A DNA stretch of 64,000 bases from Trueperaceae bacterium (lineage in GTDB: Bacteria; Deinococcota; Deinococci; Deinococcales; Trueperaceae), in assembly GCA_035266525.1 (NCBI GenBank), contig DATFNF010000020.1:35326-99325 (forward strand). The letters are read 5' to 3'. The notes beneath the pieces were generated by a model that was not told where the DNA came from, searched no databases, and saw nothing but the letters and a program-made list of their open reading frames with translations. This document shows positions 5,115 through 13,282 of this stretch, piece after piece; the stretch's first letter is position 1, and every line of letters begins with the position of its first letter. Made by a program: the position numbers and the translations under genes.

Positions 5115-6005
5115 TCAGCGGCGCAGCGCGTAGGGCCCGGAGGGGTCCTCGCCGAGGTGGAGCACGCGCATCTCGCGCATCAGCTTGTGGAGGTGAGCGA
5201 GCAGGCTGCGCTCGGCGAGGTCGTGCGCGGGCCGCGGCAACGAGGGGTAGATGCGTTGCCGCAGCGTGCCCAGGTCGGTCGCGCCGGCCGCGAGCGCCCG
5301 CACGACCTGGCGTTCGCGCTCCCGGCGGTGCTCGCCCGCCTCGACCAGCTTGGCGTCGGGGTCGTCGACGAGCGGCCCGTGGCCCGGAGCGAGGCCGGCG
5401 GGCGCCAGCGCCCGCAGACGCTCCAGGCTCTCCAGGTAGTCGGCCACGTCGCCCTCGGGCGCGCCCACCCAGCTGGAGCCGCGCCCGGCCACCAGGTCGC
5501 CGGCCAGCGCCACGGCGTCCTCCTCCACCAGGAAGGCGAGGTGGCCCGGGCTGTGGCCCGGCGTGTGGACGCTGCGCACCGTGGCGTCGCCCACGGCGAT
5601 GCGGCGGTCGCCCGCCAGCGCGACCGTGCGCACCGCGCTCGTCAGGCGCTCGGCCTCCAGAGGGTGCACGTACACGGGGCAGTCGTCGTGCGCAGCGACC
5701 AGGGCCGCCACGCCCTCGACATGGTCGCGGTGGGTGTGGGTGAGCAGCACTGCCTTGAGCAGGCGCACGCCCGCCGCGGCCAGCGCCGCATCGGTGGCCC
5801 GCACGGCGTCCTCGTCCGGCGAGCCGGGGTCGACGACCACCGCCACCCCGTTGGACGCCACCAGGTACACGTTGATGTGATCGAAGGGGGGCAGCGTGCG
5901 GCTCGGCAGGCGCAGCCGCCACACGTGCTCGGAGATCCGTTCGGAGACGTGCTCGCTACCGTGGTCGCTGCCGTCGTGCGTGCCGCCGTAGGGGGCTGCC
6001 GTCAT
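5115..6005 (-). CDS. MBL-fold metallo-hydrolase
   Basis: Track ORF. Metal-binding motif THTHRDHVEG, later HTPGHSPGH. Confidence 0.85.
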   Translation of the reverse strand: MTAAPYGGTHDGSDHGSEHVSERISEHVWRLRLPSRTLPPFDHINVYLVASNGVAVVVDPGSPDEDAVRATDAALAAAGVRLLKAVLLTHTHRDHVEGVAALVAAHDDCPVYVHPLEAERLTSAVRTVALAGDRRIAVGDATVRSVHTPGHSPGHLAFLVEEDAVALAGDLVAGRGSSWVGAPEGDVADYLESLERLRALAPAGLAPGHGPLVDDPDAKLVEAGEHRRERERQVVRALAAGATDLGTLRQRIYPSLPRPAHDLAERSLLAHLHKLMREMRVLHLGEDPSGPYALRR

Positions 6006-8998: not shown

Positions 8999-9486
8999 GT
9001 GATGCGCTCGGAGATGAACGCTTCGAGCTGCCCGGCGGCCTCGTCCAGCGTGACCTGCTGGACCACCGCCAGCTCGCTGGAGAGCATGCTCTTGGCGTGC
9101 TCGAGGACCTCGCGCTCGGTAGCGGCCAGGCCCTTCTCGAGATCGCGCTTGGCCAGCACCCCGATGAGGCGGGCGAGGTCGTAGGCGCTGCCGCCGGCGA
9201 GGATGTCCTGTTCCGCACGGTAGCGCGGCGGCCACTGCGTCGGAAGCGAGAGGTCGGCCTTGGCCAGCGCGTCGAAGACCTGTGTGATCTCGTCGGCACC
9301 GACGGTGTGGCGGAGCCCCACCTCCTGCCCCTTGCGCAGCGGGACCAGCACTTCCATGTCGCCCCGGACGAAGACGATCTTGAGGTACTGCTGGGTTTCG
9401 CCCAGCACCTCGCGCGTGGCGAGTTCCTGCACGACGCCTGCACCCTGCGACGGGTAGACCACGTTGTCACCGACCTGGAATGTCAC
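8995..9486 (-). CDS. carD: CarD/CdnL-family RNA-polymerase-binding transcription regulator
   Basis: Track ORF 8995..9546. VTFQVGDNVVYPSQGAGVV matches the canonical CarD N-terminus, so GTG 9486 was chosen. A TATGGT -10-like hexamer lies 15 nt upstream. Confidence 0.88.
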   Translation of the reverse strand: MTFQVGDNVVYPSQGAGVVQELATREVLGETQQYLKIVFVRGDMEVLVPLRKGQEVGLRHTVGADEITQVFDALAKADLSLPTQWPPRYRAEQDILAGGSAYDLARLIGVLAKRDLEKGLAATEREVLEHAKSMLSSELAVVQQVTLDEAAGQLEAFISERIT

Positions 9487-9558
9487 AGTAGCTACGAGGT
9501 TACCATAGCGCGCGCACGTCGGCCGAAGCGGCCGCCACCAGAGCACCGCGGCCGTGGG

Positions 9559-12500
9559 TCACGCCCGTGCCCGCTGCCCGCGCCCCGGGATCGTCGGCAC
9601 GTCGACCTTCTTCCCCTCGAGACGCGCCTCGATCTCGTGGATGCGGTCGCGGATGGCCGCGGCGCGCTCGAAGTCGAGGTCCTCCGACGCCTTCCACATC
9701 TCCGTCTCGAGCTGCGCGAGTTCCTGCTTGAGGTCGTCGAAGAGCAGCTCACGTTCCCAGGGGTCGAGCCTCTCGGCCTTCTGCGGCTCCGCCTCCTCGC
9801 CGCGGATGACCTCGTGGATGCGTTTGCGGATGGTCTCGGGGGTGATGCCGTGCTCGCGGTTGAAGGCGAGCTGCTTGTCGCGGCGCCGGTTGGTCTCGTC
9901 GATGGCCGCCCTCATCGCCTCGCTCACCTCGTCGGCGTAGAGGAACACCTCGCCGTTGACGTTGCGGGCCGCGCGCCCGATGGTCTGGATGAGCGAGCGT
10001 TCGCTGCGGAGGAAGCCGGTCTTGTCGGCATCGAGGATCGCCACCAGGCTCACCTCGGGCAGGTCGAGCCCCTCTCGGAGCAGGTTGATGCCGACCAGTA
10101 CGTCGAAGTGTCCGAGGCGCAGGTCGCGGATGATGACCTGACGCTCCACCGCGTCGATGTCCGAGTGCATGTAGCGCACGCGGATCCCCTGCTCGGCGAG
10201 GTACTCCGTCAGGTCCTCCGCCATCTTCTTGGTGAGCGTCGTGACCAGCACGCGCTCCTTGCGCTTGGCGCGCTCACGGACGGCGAACATCAGGTCGTCG
10301 ATCTGGCCGCGGCTCGGCTTGACGCTGAGCATGGGGTCGACCAGCCCGGTGGGGCGGATGACCTGCTCGACGGTCTTGTCGCTCAGGCGTGTTTCCTGGT
10401 CCGCCGGCGTGGCCGACACGAACACCGCCTGACCGACGCGCCCGAAGAACTCCTCCTCCTTGAGCGGGCGGTTGTCCAGGGCGGCGGGCAGCCGGAAGCC
10501 GTAGTCCACCAGCGTCTGCTTGCGGGCGCGGTCCCCGTTGAACATGCCGCGGATCTGCGGCAGCATCACGTGCGACTCGTCCAGGAAGGTGATGAAGTCG
10601 TCGGGGAAGTAGTCGAGCAGGGTGTTGGGCGGCTCGCCCGGCTTGCGGCCCTCGAGGTAGCGCGAGTAGTTCTCGATGCCGCTGCAGTACCCGAGCGTGC
10701 GCAGCATCTCCAGGTCGTACAGGGTGCGCTCGCGCAGGCGCTGCATCTCCACCAGCTTGCCGGCCTTCTCGAACAGCGCCAGCCGCTCCTGCAGGTCCGT
10801 CTCCATCTGCGCGATGGCCGGCTCGAGCTTCTCGTAGGGTGTCACGTAGTGGCGGGCAGGGAAGATCATGGCGGTCTCGAGCTCGCTGGTCTCGTCGCCG
10901 GTGATGGGGTCGACCATGGTGAGACGGTCGACCTCGTCGCCCCACAGCTCGATACGCAGCGGCTGCTCCTCGTAGGCGGCCCACACCTCGATGACGTCGC
11001 CGCGGGCGCGGAAGCGGCCGGGCGCCAGCTCGATATCGTTCCGTTCGTACTGCTGCGTGACCAGCGTCTCCAGGATGGCGTCGCGCCCCACGCTGCCGCC
11101 GACCTCCAGGATGAGGTGCATGCGCTGGTACTCCTCGGGCGACCCCAGGCCGTAGATGGCCGACACCGAGGCCACCACGATCACGTCCTTGCGCGTGAGC
11201 AGGCTGCGGGTGGTGGAGTGGCGCAGCCGCTCCAGCTCCATGTTGATGTTGGCGTCCTTCTCGATGAACAGGTCGCGCGCCGGCACGTAGGCCTCGGGCT
11301 GGTAGTAGTCGTAGTAGCTGATGAAGAACTCCACCGCGGCGGTGGGGAACAGGTCCCGGAACTCGGAGGCGAGCTGGGCGGTCAGGATCTTGTTGGGAGC
11401 CATGATGAGGGCCGGGCGCTGCGCGCGCTCGATGATCTTGGCCATGGAGTAGGTGTTGTGGACGAAGAGGCCGCCCCGACCCGTCATGAAGGTCTCGAAG
11501 CCGTCGACGCTGAGGTCGTAGACGTACGCGCCATCCGGAGGGATCACGTCAACGGACGCGACCTGCGACCAGCGGACGTGCGCCAGGCCCTTGAACGTGG
11601 CGTCATCGATCTCGAGCGCCCTGCACAGGCGACCGAACACCAGCTTCGACGGGCTGCGCCTGTTGTGCTCGACCAGCGACACCATCGATCGCGTGACACC
11701 GGCTCTATGGGCGACCTCCCGCTGGAGCAGACCGCGAGCTTCGCGCGCCGCGCGAAGGCGTTCTCCGACCCCGTAGACCAGGTCGACGTTGGTGTCCACG
11801 TTCTTGCGCCAGGCGAGCATGGCCGCACGCTTGCGTTCACTCAGGAAGCCGATGGCGATCGCGAAGTGAGCGAGGTTCTCAGCCCCTGAGATGGTGATTC
11901 TGTAGTACGTGCCCATCGTGCCGTCCGGTCGGCGCTTGCGCACGCGCCGGTTCCGGGCCCAGATCTCGAAACGCAGGAGCGCCTCGGTGATCTCCGAAGC
12001 AAGCGTGGAGCTGGCGGTCACCGCCGTGACGCTCCCGGCCTCCATGCCGCCGTCGCCCTCGAAGTAGGCTCGGAGCAAGGCGGCAAGATGACGGTTACCG
12101 AGCGAAGCCCAGAACGCCGGGAGCCGCTTGTTCGGGGCATGCGTTCCCAGCATCGCTGCGAACACGTCACGCCACATGCGTGTCCCGATGACGAAGTCGC
12201 CGTCGCGCGTCCTGAAGAAGTGGATGTCGAGATCGTCGAGCCAGCCGGCCACCATGCGCTGAAGTTGAGGTTCGCGCACCGACAGCATGGCGTACCGATC
12301 CGCTGCATGGCCCTCCGCGATGTAGAGGCCCAGCAGGCCCAGCGAAGCCTCGTCCAGGTCCAGAGAGGCGCCACGGGAGTAGCGACGCCCGTGGGTCTCG
12401 ATGTCCTCGATGGCCAGGTGCCCCCGCTCCACCAGCTCTGCCGCGGCGGACACGCCTACGCTGTCGCCCTTCAGCCCCTGGCGCATGGCGTAGAGCTTCC

Positions 12501-13152
12501 CGTACGGGCGGGGGTTGTGCCGGCCGATCCAGTCCGCCAGCTCCTCCGCCTCCATGCGGTCCATGACCTTGCGCACATCCGCAAACGTGCCCGTGCTCGT
12601 CGAAAGGTAGTCGAGGAGGTCGAGCTGCGTGATCGGCCGGTCGGGCTCCGGGACCTTCTCGGGGAGCGGGAGCGCGTCACCCGGCCGAACCTGCGAGCCC
12701 TGTAGGAGTTGGAGCGAACCTTCCCTCAGCACCCACACGCTGTGGTCCCCCGTTACAGAGACCCTTCGCCCGCAGCGCGTCGCCAGCTCGTACATGATCT
12801 CGGGCGCGCGGTGGCGGCTGAGCGCGCGGACCTCACGCCAGCCCACCGTTCCGTCGTCCGGATTCCAAGCCAGGACCTTCCACGGCCCGGGCGGGGCGCC
12901 CTCGACAGTCTCGGCAACCTCTGCCGTGTGGCCCAGAGCGCCGTCCACGAGGTTGCCGATCGGCCCGTGGTAGGTGCCCTCCGCGCCCATATCGACGGTC
13001 ACCGGCTCGGCGCGCCCCACGCTCTTGCCGGAGCCGGTCACGCCCAGCAGCGTCTGGAAGCGCAACCCGTCTCCGAGCCCCTCGACGATGCCGTCGATGG
13101 CCCGCGGCTGGTCGCCGCGGGGCTCGTAGGGGGAGTGCACTTCGAGCGGCAT
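9559..13152 (-). CDS. uvrB: Excinuclease ABC subunit B, interrupted by an intein
   Basis: Track ORF, 1197 aa. UvrB motifs: LLGVTGSGK...[40 protein letters not shown] and the C-terminal UVR domain [14 protein letters not shown]. It is about 520 aa longer than typical UvrB because of the insert at 11455..13023. Confidence 0.95.
11455..13023 (-). mobile_element. Intein (523 aa) with LAGLIDADG homing-endonuclease domain and XRE-like HTH, inserted in the UvrB Walker A motif
   Basis: Ser1 (AGC, 13023..13021) follows GSGK. Block B is [20 protein letters not shown] motifs are [11 protein letters not shown] and [14 protein letters not shown] is [23 protein letters not shown]-terminal blocks are [23 protein letters not shown], followed by Thr (ACC, 11454..11452). 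Excision restores GSGKT. Confidence 0.85.
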
Positions 13153-13160
13153 GTCCTAAT

Positions 13161-13166
13161 AGTTTA
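13161..13166 (-). promoter_or_regulatory. Candidate -10 box TAAACT just upstream of uvrB
   Basis: The minus strand reads CCTTAAACTATTAGGAC followed by ATG. The hexamer ends 8 nt before the start codon and there is no strong SD. Confidence 0.3.
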
Positions 13167-13240
13167 AGGTATCGCCCCGCGGCCGGTGTGGCCCGGTGAA
13201 ACGTGCGCCGGCAGATACCGACCCGGCTCGATCGCGCCCG

Positions 13241-13269
13241 CCGGAGCGGAGCCGTGCCGGTCGCTCCGG
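13241..13269 (-). terminator. Stem-loop downstream of the ABC exporter gene
   Basis: CCGGAGCG (13241-13248) pairs with CGCTCCGG (13262-13269), with a 13-nt loop. It lies 14 nt beyond the exporter stop codon. Confidence 0.35.
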
Positions 13270-13282
13270 CGCCGGCCGGCGC

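Follow-up and report, generated by a model that had tools for sequence, protein, structure and literature searches.

A predicted mobile intein with an XRE-type helix-turn-helix domain in the Walker A motif of UvrB from a Trueperaceae bacterium

The stretch of DNA analyzed here (64 kb, referred to as the window) contains a uvrB gene on the reverse strand whose product, at 1197 amino acids, was identified by exact-sequence look-up as HKI55982.1, deposited as 'excinuclease ABC subunit UvrB [Trueperaceae bacterium]'. UvrB equivalog models of NCBIfam matched this protein with ~997 bits in two stretches, with the break at profile position 41/42. A preliminary description of the locus had reported the 1197-residue UvrB reading frame and an insert at residues 44–566; both were recovered, these residues map exactly to positions 11455..13023, and all motifs quoted in that description were found at the places given. 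The main features are:

9559..13152, reverse strand: uvrB precursor gene, 1197 codons plus stop (ORF list, NCBIfam UvrB equivalogs, exact-sequence look-up)
13024..13152, reverse strand: N-extein, residues 1–43, ending in LLGVTGSGK, which is Walker A up to the Lys
11455..13023, reverse strand: intein, 523 residues (precursor 44–566), from Ser1 to His522-Asn523 (Pfam/NCBIfam, exact excision, AlphaFold model, Foldseek)
9559..11454, reverse strand: C-extein, residues 567–1197 plus stop, starting with Thr567 and aligned to 1d2m residues 43–663

The insertion point lies between the Lys and the Thr of the UvrB Walker A motif (GSGK/T, the slash marking the insertion point). Directly after the end of the insert (GGLFVHN), the C-extein opens with TYSMAKIIE, and Thermus thermophilus UvrB (1d2m) aligns across the junction as GTGK/TVTMAKVIE. 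Thr567 is thus both the +1 nucleophile and the Walker A Thr. Once the 1569 nt are removed, the remaining gene of 2025 nt is colinear, with no gap, with a natural intein-free uvrB; this allele encodes 674 amino acids with 90% amino acid identity and lies in a related Deinococcales metagenome-assembled genome (MAG), at a syntenic locus. The intein-free proteins (P0159-61) belong to the same 90%-identity cluster as the window UvrB, both loci L081 and L082 are syntenic, and the ten amino acids on each side of the junction are identical between the window exteins and the empty allele of L081. On the sequence level, exact excision gives back a form of UvrB carried naturally by a close relative, and gap-free colinearity of this kind is far beyond chance. 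The expectation that excision would restore GSGKT and a UvrB of ~674 residues is therefore matched by a natural allele. No second intein or second uvrB was found within the 64-kb window, Rfam, tRNA, and tandem-repeat scans of the rest of the window gave nothing relevant, and reading by eye of the 130-bp region upstream of uvrB revealed no obvious palindromic operator.

The source of the contig is a MAG, and the interrupted gene might in principle represent an assembly or binning artefact, or else a permanent, unspliced domain insertion in UvrB. Such an explanation is extremely improbable. The insert is in frame and its termini are exactly those of an intein, a 1197-residue protein with 99% identity (P0158) comes from an independent ENA assembly, and an equal architecture is present in 71 other genomes. 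A block of 523 residues that stayed permanently within Walker A, separating its Lys from its Thr, could not be reconciled with the conserved ATPase site, and the splicing residues are invariant (see below), as purifying selection for splicing predicts.

To characterize the insert, its sequence was compared with profile models and its structure was predicted using AlphaFold (AF2). The domain order is HINT-N, LAGLIDADG endonuclease, XRE-type helix-turn-helix (HTH) accessory domain, and HINT-C. The parts related to splicing, and the region that follows HINT-N, are:

12664..13023, reverse strand: HINT-N part, intein residues 1–120, with Ser1 in block A; beta-rich in the AF2 model
12736..12768, reverse strand: block B, T91-x-x-H94 (VSVTGDHSV; T91-G-D-H94)
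12349..12663, reverse strand: linker/helical region between HINT-N and the endonuclease core, intein residues 121–225 (AF2 secondary structure)
11455..11574, reverse strand: C-terminal intein segment with D503, H522, and N523 (TIGR01443 match)

The profile searches for splicing, LAGLIDADG, and HTH domains that the preliminary description had proposed placed Intein_splicing, LAGLIDADG_3, and both HTH_3 and HTH_31 above their curated cut-offs. Within the 523-residue insert, Pfam Intein_splicing scored 44.1 bits (cut-off 35.8), and the NCBIfam model for the intein C-terminus (TIGR01443) scored 17.4 bits (cut-off 15.6). On the other hand, the N-terminal model (TIGR01445) reached 23.4 bits, slightly under its cut-off of 24.5, which counts against the intein reading. 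The AF2 model has a pLDDT of 88.4; its top Foldseek matches are inteins containing a homing endonuclease, and mini-inteins were also matched through the HINT fold with an rmsd of ~3 Å. The canonical splicing residues are complete, namely Ser1, T91xxH94, D503, H522-N523, and Thr+1. Comparative analysis of UvrB inteins revealed that S1, T91, H94, D503, H522, and N523 are invariant in all 71 members, and that the +1 residue (Thr567 in the window) is Thr or Ser in every homolog, which bears out the earlier assignment of Ser1 and Thr+1. The linker region (residues 121–225) is the segment that varies most in length across the family.

Based on the established intein mechanism, the precursor would be made as a single chain of 1197 residues; its Walker A motif is interrupted, and therefore it should be unable to bind ATP. 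Splicing would begin with an N-O acyl shift at Ser1, Thr567 would attack the resulting ester (transesterification), and cyclization of Asn523 would free the intein; a final O-N shift would yield UvrB of 674 residues with an intact GSGKT.

We then analyzed the distribution of this element. A complete UvrB intein at the identical site was detected in at least 71 species-level genomes from phyla including Deinococcota, Armatimonadota, Abditibacteriota, Chloroflexota, Patescibacteria, and Acidobacteriota. This genome scan was based on a six-sequence alignment, with C-terminal junctions called by the pattern G..GG..HN, and the 71 family members scanned for domains and residues consist of 70 of those genomes plus the window. 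Thus, the survey of relatives suggested in the preliminary description yielded both an intein-free uvrB in a related MAG and same-site inteins in 71 species-representative genomes, and the view of UvrB as a rare intein host could not be maintained. UvrB lies outside the top 15 bacterial intein hosts in the ranking given by Novikova et al. (PMC4760082), as far as that ranking extends, and a literature search judged mostly from titles and abstracts returned no published description of a UvrB intein.

The endonuclease features of the insert are:

11824..12348, reverse strand: LAGLIDADG homing-endonuclease domain, intein residues 226–400 (Pfam LAGLIDADG_3, Foldseek)
12304..12336, reverse strand: LAGLIDADG motif 1 (LLGLYIAE237G), with acidic residue E237, present in 64 of the 71 UvrB inteins
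12046..12078, reverse strand: LAGLIDADG motif 2 (LLRAYFEGD324G), with acidic residue D324, present in 66 of the 71

LAGLIDADG_3 scored 44.8 bits (curated cut-off 22.5), and Foldseek matched this fold to PI-TkoII, PI-PfuI, I-DmoI, and I-Tsp061I. In addition to the two acidic residues, K299 is conserved in 68 of the 71 UvrB inteins; all three are intact in the window intein, and each occurs in at least 90% of the family. Once free, the 523-residue intein would be a site-specific LAGLIDADG endonuclease, predicted to cut intein-free uvrB around ...GGCTCGGGCAAG/ACGTACTCCATGGCG...; the corresponding candidate target in the empty allele of L081 is GGCGTCACGGGCTCGGGCAAG/ACGTACTCCATGGCGAAGATC. Repair from an intein-bearing copy would then spread the element (homing).

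Several observations count for mobility. The presence of the intein is polymorphic among close relatives. Intein identities (45–60%) hardly vary from phylum to phylum and do not follow extein identities (55–91%); for example, L001 compared with Armatimonadota (L002, L003, and L013) gives 58–59% for the intein and 56–63% for the exteins, and compared with Deinococcus gives 52% and 73–75%, respectively. The GC content at third codon positions (GC3) is 0.86 in the intein versus 0.96 in the exteins, and this step coincides with the intein boundaries. On the other hand, the nearest relative of the intein is just ~52% identical, so no trace of a recent donor is left, which counts against mobility. 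Comparison with the empty allele gave no clear signal of a co-conversion tract around the insertion site.

These last two points would also be expected if the intein still splices but has become an immobile relic, in which the endonuclease is inactive or its target gone and the HTH domain is vestigial. Decay of the endonuclease does occur in this family, since 9 of the 71 UvrB inteins (~13%) have lost an acidic residue or carry deletions, and the window intein is ~50% diverged from every known relative. However, E237, K299, D324, and the HTH domain are all intact, both domains are confidently predicted by AF2, intein-free alleles that could serve as targets exist in related MAGs at 90% extein identity, and the GC3 of the intein has not yet been ameliorated. 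We therefore consider a relic unlikely. Judging from the sequence, the insert is very probably a mobile class-1 intein with a homing endonuclease in the UvrB P-loop, in which both splicing and homing would take place.

The remaining domain of the insert follows the endonuclease and precedes the C-terminal splicing segment:

11578..11790, reverse strand: accessory domain, a five-helix HTH of the XRE/Cro-C1 type, intein residues 412–482 (Pfam, AF2, Foldseek, phmmer)
11605..11757, reverse strand: Pfam HTH_3 match within the accessory domain

The insert scored 40.8 bits with HTH_3 (curated cut-off 23) and 41.4 bits with HTH_31 (cut-off 27). Five helices are present at intein residues 420–480 in the full AF2 model and again in a model of the isolated domain (pLDDT 81). 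Foldseek matched the domain to C.AhdI, C.BclI, SinR, DdrO, and P22 c2 with TM-scores of 0.7–0.84, and phmmer also returned XRE proteins. The central proposal of the preliminary description, which places a LAGLIDADG intein carrying an XRE-type HTH between Lys and Thr of Walker A, is thus upheld by profile matches, by the predicted fold, by the splicing residues conserved throughout the family, and by the empty allele. Kinship with the DdrO damage regulon of Deinococcus was considered and rejected: identity to DdrO is 31–33%, no better than to controller proteins of restriction–modification systems, and the HTH occurs in phyla that lack DdrO.

An HTH at this place had been thought unusual, which is not borne out. 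HTH_3 scores in 53 of the 71 UvrB inteins scanned, and the HTH is likewise present in related inteins from MCM, HerA, and T2SS ATPases. Structural work on TliVMA and PI-TkoII had already placed an HTH-like accessory domain after the endonuclease and ahead of the C-terminal splicing segment (PMC8966425). As the preliminary description itself had anticipated, many same-site UvrB inteins with an HTH remove the novelty of the find and leave its identification as an intein standing.

The HTH would add DNA contacts beside the endonuclease saddle and so modulate target recognition. By analogy, such added contacts for the endonuclease are its most likely role: the corresponding domain of the TliVMA intein has been shown experimentally to modulate target recognition, the position is that of the accessory domain in TliVMA and PI-TkoII, and the module is kept in related inteins of the unrelated hosts MCM, HerA, and T2SSE. 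The HTH need not sharpen specificity, however, as the TliVMA accessory domain makes cleavage more promiscuous, not more specific (PMC8966425). Among UvrB inteins, those that lack the accessory domain have more often lost endonuclease acidic residues as well (3/5 versus 6/66, Fisher p = 0.013), an association based on five cases and uncorrected for phylogeny.

Alternatively, the HTH might be regulatory, such that DNA- or damage-dependent splicing gates UvrB maturation, or the intein, once excised, serves as a transcription factor of the XRE type. In that case, nucleotide excision repair would be switched post-translationally by an intein within a repair ATPase. The domain is a genuine XRE fold with 31–37% identity to C-proteins and DdrO, and conditional protein splicing is on record for other inteins in repair and replication proteins, e.g., mycobacterial DnaB (PMC6195587, PMC7360933). 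However, the same HTH is found in MCM, HerA, and secretion-ATPase inteins and in UvrB across at least eight phyla, implying that it travels with the intein and its endonuclease and is tied neither to nucleotide excision repair nor to the biology of Deinococcota. Moreover, the HTH tends to vanish together with the endonuclease active site, and its resemblance to DdrO is no better than that to many other XRE proteins. A regulatory role is thus a very doubtful alternative, and nothing in our analysis supports the earlier suggestion that the HTH couples UvrB maturation to the state of the DNA.

The window protein and dozens like it, of ~1200 residues, are deposited as 'excinuclease ABC subunit UvrB' with no intein feature, and flagging this recurrent P-loop intein allele of UvrB would improve both annotation and intein censuses. 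Together with L081/L082, the window forms a natural pair of intein-plus and intein-minus alleles with 90% identical exteins and syntenic loci, which offers a ready system for testing homing and the contribution of the HTH accessory domain. Such a test bears on the contribution of accessory domains to homing-endonuclease specificity and to the movement of P-loop inteins among unrelated ATPases.

Among known systems, the deposited UvrB inteins, including those of Deinococcus murrayi DSM 11303 (L006), D. phoenicis (L008), and many Chloroflexota and Armatimonadota MAGs, share the host protein, the insertion site, Ser1/HN/Thr+1, and the domain order with the window intein, and mostly also an HTH. 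They are just 30–53% identical to it, and none is annotated as an intein. P-loop inteins of MCM, HerA, T2SS/PilB-type, and TraG-type ATPases are sequence relatives (E-values 1e-25 to 1e-46). Those of HerA, T2SSE, and TraG have the insertion point in common with the window, i.e., GK before an intein that begins with Ser or Cys and ends with HN before Ser or Thr. Many inteins of this group also contain the HTH module, with HTH_3 scoring in MCM P0051 and P0103 and in HerA P0091. However, all of these ATPase inteins occur in other hosts, most of them archaeal, and several begin with Cys1. The best NCBIfam match, with 112 bits over residues 22–523, is to archaeal RNA polymerase A'' inteins (NF011491/PRK14898); those of loci L078–L080 are ~30% identical, of equal length, and have like termini (S...THN/T), whereas their archaeal hosts carry them at GEPGTQM/S and not in a Walker A motif.

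The best structural match is PI-TkoII, the Pol intein of T. kodakaraensis (PDB 2cw7), with an E-value of 1e-26, TM-scores of 0.64–0.66, and 21% identity. No other intein gave a strong sequence match in the PDB, where the part matched was HINT-N (8.6e-17), and PI-TkoII likewise has an HTH-like accessory domain (PMC8966425). Unlike the window intein, it is archaeal, interrupts a family B DNA polymerase and not a P-loop, and has an extra domain IV. The TliVMA (PDB 7qss) and PhoVMA inteins, at the archaeal VMA-b site, likewise lie in an ATPase P-loop and share HINT and a LAGLIDADG endonuclease, the latter followed by an accessory domain ahead of HINT-C (Beyer and Iwai 2022, PMC8966425). The accessory domain of TliVMA is HTH-like and changes which DNA sites are cut (PMC8966425). 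Foldseek aligned the TliVMA intein with the window intein at an E-value of 1e-23 and a target-normalized TM-score (TMt) of 0.74, with an overall identity of just 17%. The host of TliVMA differs, being the V-ATPase A subunit of Archaea, as does its first residue (Cys1, with the crystallized construct being C1A, versus Ser1 in the window), and a PDB sequence search detected no match between its accessory domain and the window HTH. According to the predicted model, the window intein fits the HEN-associated intein with an accessory domain as defined by Beyer and Iwai (2022), and its closest structural neighbors, PI-TkoII and TliVMA, are the two inteins in which that domain is HTH-like. The insert belongs to a widespread and structurally well-understood class of inteins and reveals no new mechanism.

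Both ends of the precursor ORF belong to UvrB: the NCBIfam equivalogs PRK05298 (~997 bits) and TIGR00631 (~992 bits) each matched in two stretches, the second of which covers residues 566-1176 and starts at profile position 42. Comparison with solved structures showed that precursor residues 10-46 and 567-1195 align with residues 9-45 and 43-663 of Thermus thermophilus UvrB (1d2m), whose Walker A motif reads GTGK-TVTMAKVIE; here, GSGK is followed by 523 residues and then by TYSMAKIIE. All motifs quoted in a preliminary description of this intein were found in the ORF, and the insert occupies exactly the residues and coordinates proposed there.

9559..13152, minus strand, uvrB precursor ORF, 1197 aa (ORF list)
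11455..13023, minus strand, insert (intein), 523 residues, precursor residues 44-566 (motif positions and UvrB alignment)
13153..13282, minus strand, uvrB upstream intergenic region, 130 bp, ending ...GATACCTTAAACTATTAGGACATG

The exact precursor protein is publicly recorded as HKI55982.1, a MAG-derived "excinuclease ABC subunit UvrB [Trueperaceae bacterium]", and this record carries no intein annotation. Within this intergenic region, an AT-rich patch directly 5' of the start codon is a possible -10 element, and no obvious palindromic operator was seen by eye in the 130 bp upstream of uvrB. A 930-aa ORF (9097..11889, plus strand) lies antisense to uvrB and further long ORFs overlap the gene on both strands; these look like the usual stop-codon-poor artefact of ~70% GC DNA rather than genes. 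Within the 64-kb window, no tRNA genes and no Rfam families above threshold were detected, and tandem repeats were short and low-copy only.

The insert matched all of the profiles named in the preliminary description (Hint, LAGLIDADG, and HTH_3) above the curated Pfam cut-offs: Intein_splicing (44.1 bits; cut-off 35.8), LAGLIDADG_3 (44.8; 22.5), HTH_3 (40.8; 23), as well as HTH_31 (41.4; 27). Its best NCBIfam match was the model of an intein-containing archaeal RpoA'' (112 bits, residues 22-523). AlphaFold2 modeled the 523 residues confidently (mean pLDDT 88.4, pTM 0.87) as a beta-rich HINT domain divided into N- and C-terminal parts, a helical linker region (residues 121-225), an alpha/beta endonuclease core, and, separating this core from HINT-C, a five-helix bundle (residues 420-480). 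Foldseek comparison of this model with the PDB placed inteins containing homing endonucleases on top, including PI-TkoII (2cw7; E 1e-26), the TliVMA intein (7qss; 1e-23), PI-PfuI (5e-18), PhoVMA (5e-16), and, at lower rank, PI-SceI, followed by mini-inteins and I-DmoI. Modeled in isolation (pLDDT 81), the five-helix segment resembles XRE-family DNA binders (TM 0.7-0.84), such as the restriction-modification controllers C.AhdI, C.BclI, and C.Esp1396I, and SinR, ClgR, DdrO, and P22 c2. Because Pfam, the isolated-domain model, and a PDB sequence search with the segment agree, the assignment of an XRE-like HTH holds for the sequence as well as for the predicted fold.

A search for intein-free uvrB in relatives, as the preliminary description had suggested, revealed a natural empty allele. 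Three 674-aa UvrB proteins of Deinococcales MAGs fall in the 90%-identity cluster of the precursor, and 674 is the precursor length minus the insert (1197 − 523). Two contigs encoding one such protein (L081 and L082) are syntenic with the window over the side of uvrB that was compared, where an acyl-CoA synthetase and an ABC transporter precede uvrB. Removal of 11455..13023 leaves a gene of 2025 nt, which aligns with that of L081 without gaps (86% nucleotide identity), and the ten amino acids on each side of the excised junction are identical. The insert boundaries are therefore settled, and the intein is polymorphic for presence and absence among close relatives. GC3 is 0.94-1.00 in the exteins; along the insert, most 100-codon windows lie at 0.82-0.87 and one at 0.93. 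The step coincides with the insert boundaries (11455..13023 versus the C-extein at 9559..11454), a pattern expected of foreign DNA whose amelioration is incomplete. Owing to a higher GC2 in the intein, intein and extein hardly differ in total GC (0.68).

To examine the distribution of this family, one genome per GTDB species was scanned with a profile-guided approach; 143 relatives were found and 80 kept. Among those kept, 70 loci plus L073 have a full-length intein inserted in UvrB at exactly this site (GK/S ... HN/T or S, the slash marking the junction), five carry the same allele broken by a contig end or frameshift, three are archaeal RpoA'' inteins (L078-L080), and one (L075) lies in a P-loop ATPase encoded by a Saccharibacteria MAG. 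Cultured hosts of the UvrB intein include Deinococcus murrayi DSM 11303, D. phoenicis, and Deinococcus sp. SM5_A1; MAG hosts include Deinococcales, Armatimonadota/Chthonomonadaceae, Abditibacteriaceae, many Chloroflexota, Patescibacteria, Acidobacteriota, Gammaproteobacteria, Planctomycetes, and Omnitrophica. The Chthonomonadaceae MAG locus L073 has the Walker A sequence GATATGK/S instead of GATGTGK, ~6 nt upstream of locus position 6001, which fits GxxxxGK[ST]. The 3.9-kb contig JBPBQB010000079.1 (L004, "MAG: Janthinobacterium lividum") encodes an Armatimonadota-type intein in a UvrB whose extein shares 90% identity with its counterpart in an Armatimonadota MAG (L013); the contig is probably misbinned rather than a betaproteobacterial case. 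In five Chloroflexia MAGs, mostly "MFD" assemblies (L049, L058, L069, L070, and L072), uvrB or its intein is frameshifted, owing either to pseudogenization or to indel errors in the assemblies.

Alignment of the window intein with 70 loci revealed the following conservation.

Conserved intein residues (71 sequences, intein numbering)
S1, T91, H94, D503, H522, N523: splicing, 71/71 each
E237: endonuclease acid, 64/71
D324: endonuclease acid, 66/71
K299: endonuclease Lys, 68/71

The idea that the insert is an artefact or a non-spliced domain insertion can be excluded for practical purposes, considering the invariant splicing residues, the 71 homologous cases, and a 1197-aa protein, 99% identical to the precursor, in an independent ENA assembly. 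An immobile relic, competent in splicing but with a dead endonuclease, appears unlikely, since the window intein retains every residue listed, those of the endonuclease active site included, and empty target alleles exist. Elsewhere in the family, an acidic endonuclease residue is lost in 9/71 members, several of which also have deletions, and two more members are shortened with both acids kept, as expected from the decay predicted by the homing cycle. Eight shortened inteins of 419-495 aa (L038, L046, L059, L065-L068, and L074) lack parts of the endonuclease, of the HTH accessory domain, or of both, but keep all splicing residues; they resemble intermediate stages at which an intein is losing its endonuclease and becoming a mini-intein. 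Five members have a truncated accessory segment, and three of them have lost an endonuclease acid, compared with 6 of the 66 members whose segment is intact (Fisher p = 0.013, in a small sample with members counted regardless of phylogeny).

Related inteins also occur in other host proteins. An exhaustive search of 1.84 billion representatives yielded 2503 matches at E ≤ 1e-3, of which 67 reached E ≤ 1e-30. A word-indexed protein search returned nine matches and missed the query's own cluster, even though the collection contains the identical protein; taken alone, such a search would make the intein look misleadingly rare. In the sample scanned with Pfam, the HINT–LAGLIDADG_3–HTH_3 arrangement is common to archaeal MCM, HerA helicases, and UvrB, and related inteins were found in T2SS/PilB-type, TraG-type, and CDC48 ATPases; the HerA, T2SSE, and TraG examples have GK/[S or C] ... 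HN/[S or T] junctions. Since arrangement and junctions recur in other ATPases, the UvrB intein is a member of a broad P-loop intein clade, and the same module in MCM, HerA, and UvrB inteins indicates that the HTH travels with the intein and not with the host. An HMM built from the HTH segments of the family detected the module in 63/161 collected proteins, and among the 71 UvrB inteins Pfam found HTH_3 in 53 and HTH_31 in 51. Thus, the view that the HTH is an unusual feature does not hold, all the more as accessory domains of this kind have published precedent. A regulatory or sensor role of the HTH, the second suggestion of the preliminary description, appears very improbable, as the module also occurs outside UvrB and outside Deinococcota and resembles DdrO no more closely than it does many other XRE proteins.

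Within the closest subgroup (N-terminus SVAW...), intein identity between lineages is flat (45-60%), whereas extein identity (55-91%) tracks taxonomy.

Intein and extein identity in the SVAW... subgroup
L001 (Deinococcales) versus Armatimonadota (L002, L003, L013): intein 58-59%, extein 56-63%
L001 versus Deinococcus: intein 52%, extein 73-75%
L011 versus L015: intein 55%, extein 84%

The window intein is ~50% identical to every subgroup member, and its closest extein relatives are intein-free. Judging from these identities, the history of the UvrB intein fits repeated invasion or transfer rather than vertical descent. No recent donor was visible among the relatives compared, and no co-conversion tract was detected around the insertion site against the empty L081 allele.

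P-loop LAGLIDADG inteins are a textbook class, many deposited genomes contain the UvrB intein, and there are structural as well as biochemical precedents for its HTH accessory domain; we therefore consider it an intein of known class. No published description of a UvrB intein was found in papers pairing inteins with UvrB or excinuclease, mostly at the level of title or abstract, and UvrB is absent from the list of top-15 bacterial intein hosts (UvrD, RecG, and others) of Novikova et al. 2016 (PMC4760082). Its practical value lies in a natural intein-plus/intein-minus allele pair and in the annotation gap.

Class-1 inteins splice by an N-O acyl shift, transesterification, Asn cyclization, and an O-N shift. 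By this pathway, Ser1 would undergo the acyl shift, Thr567 (precursor numbering) would carry out transesterification, Asn523 would cyclize to release the intein, and the O-N shift would join the exteins, giving a 674-aa UvrB with intact GSGKT and a free 523-aa intein. With its Walker A motif interrupted between Lys and Thr, the unspliced precursor is expected to lack ATPase activity, which would explain why the splicing residues are invariant. The free intein is predicted by homology to act as a LAGLIDADG endonuclease targeting the empty uvrB site, with the HTH as its putative accessory DNA-binding domain. Accessory domains between endonuclease and HINT-C were defined by Beyer & Iwai (PMC8966425), and those of PI-TkoII and the P-loop intein TliVMA resemble HTH DNA binders; deletion and grafting of the TliVMA domain change the sites cleaved, and the domain adds a second cleavage site, making cutting more promiscuous (PMC8966425). 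The most economical reading is that the HTH of the window intein, which likewise lies between endonuclease and HINT-C of a P-loop intein, plays the same role.
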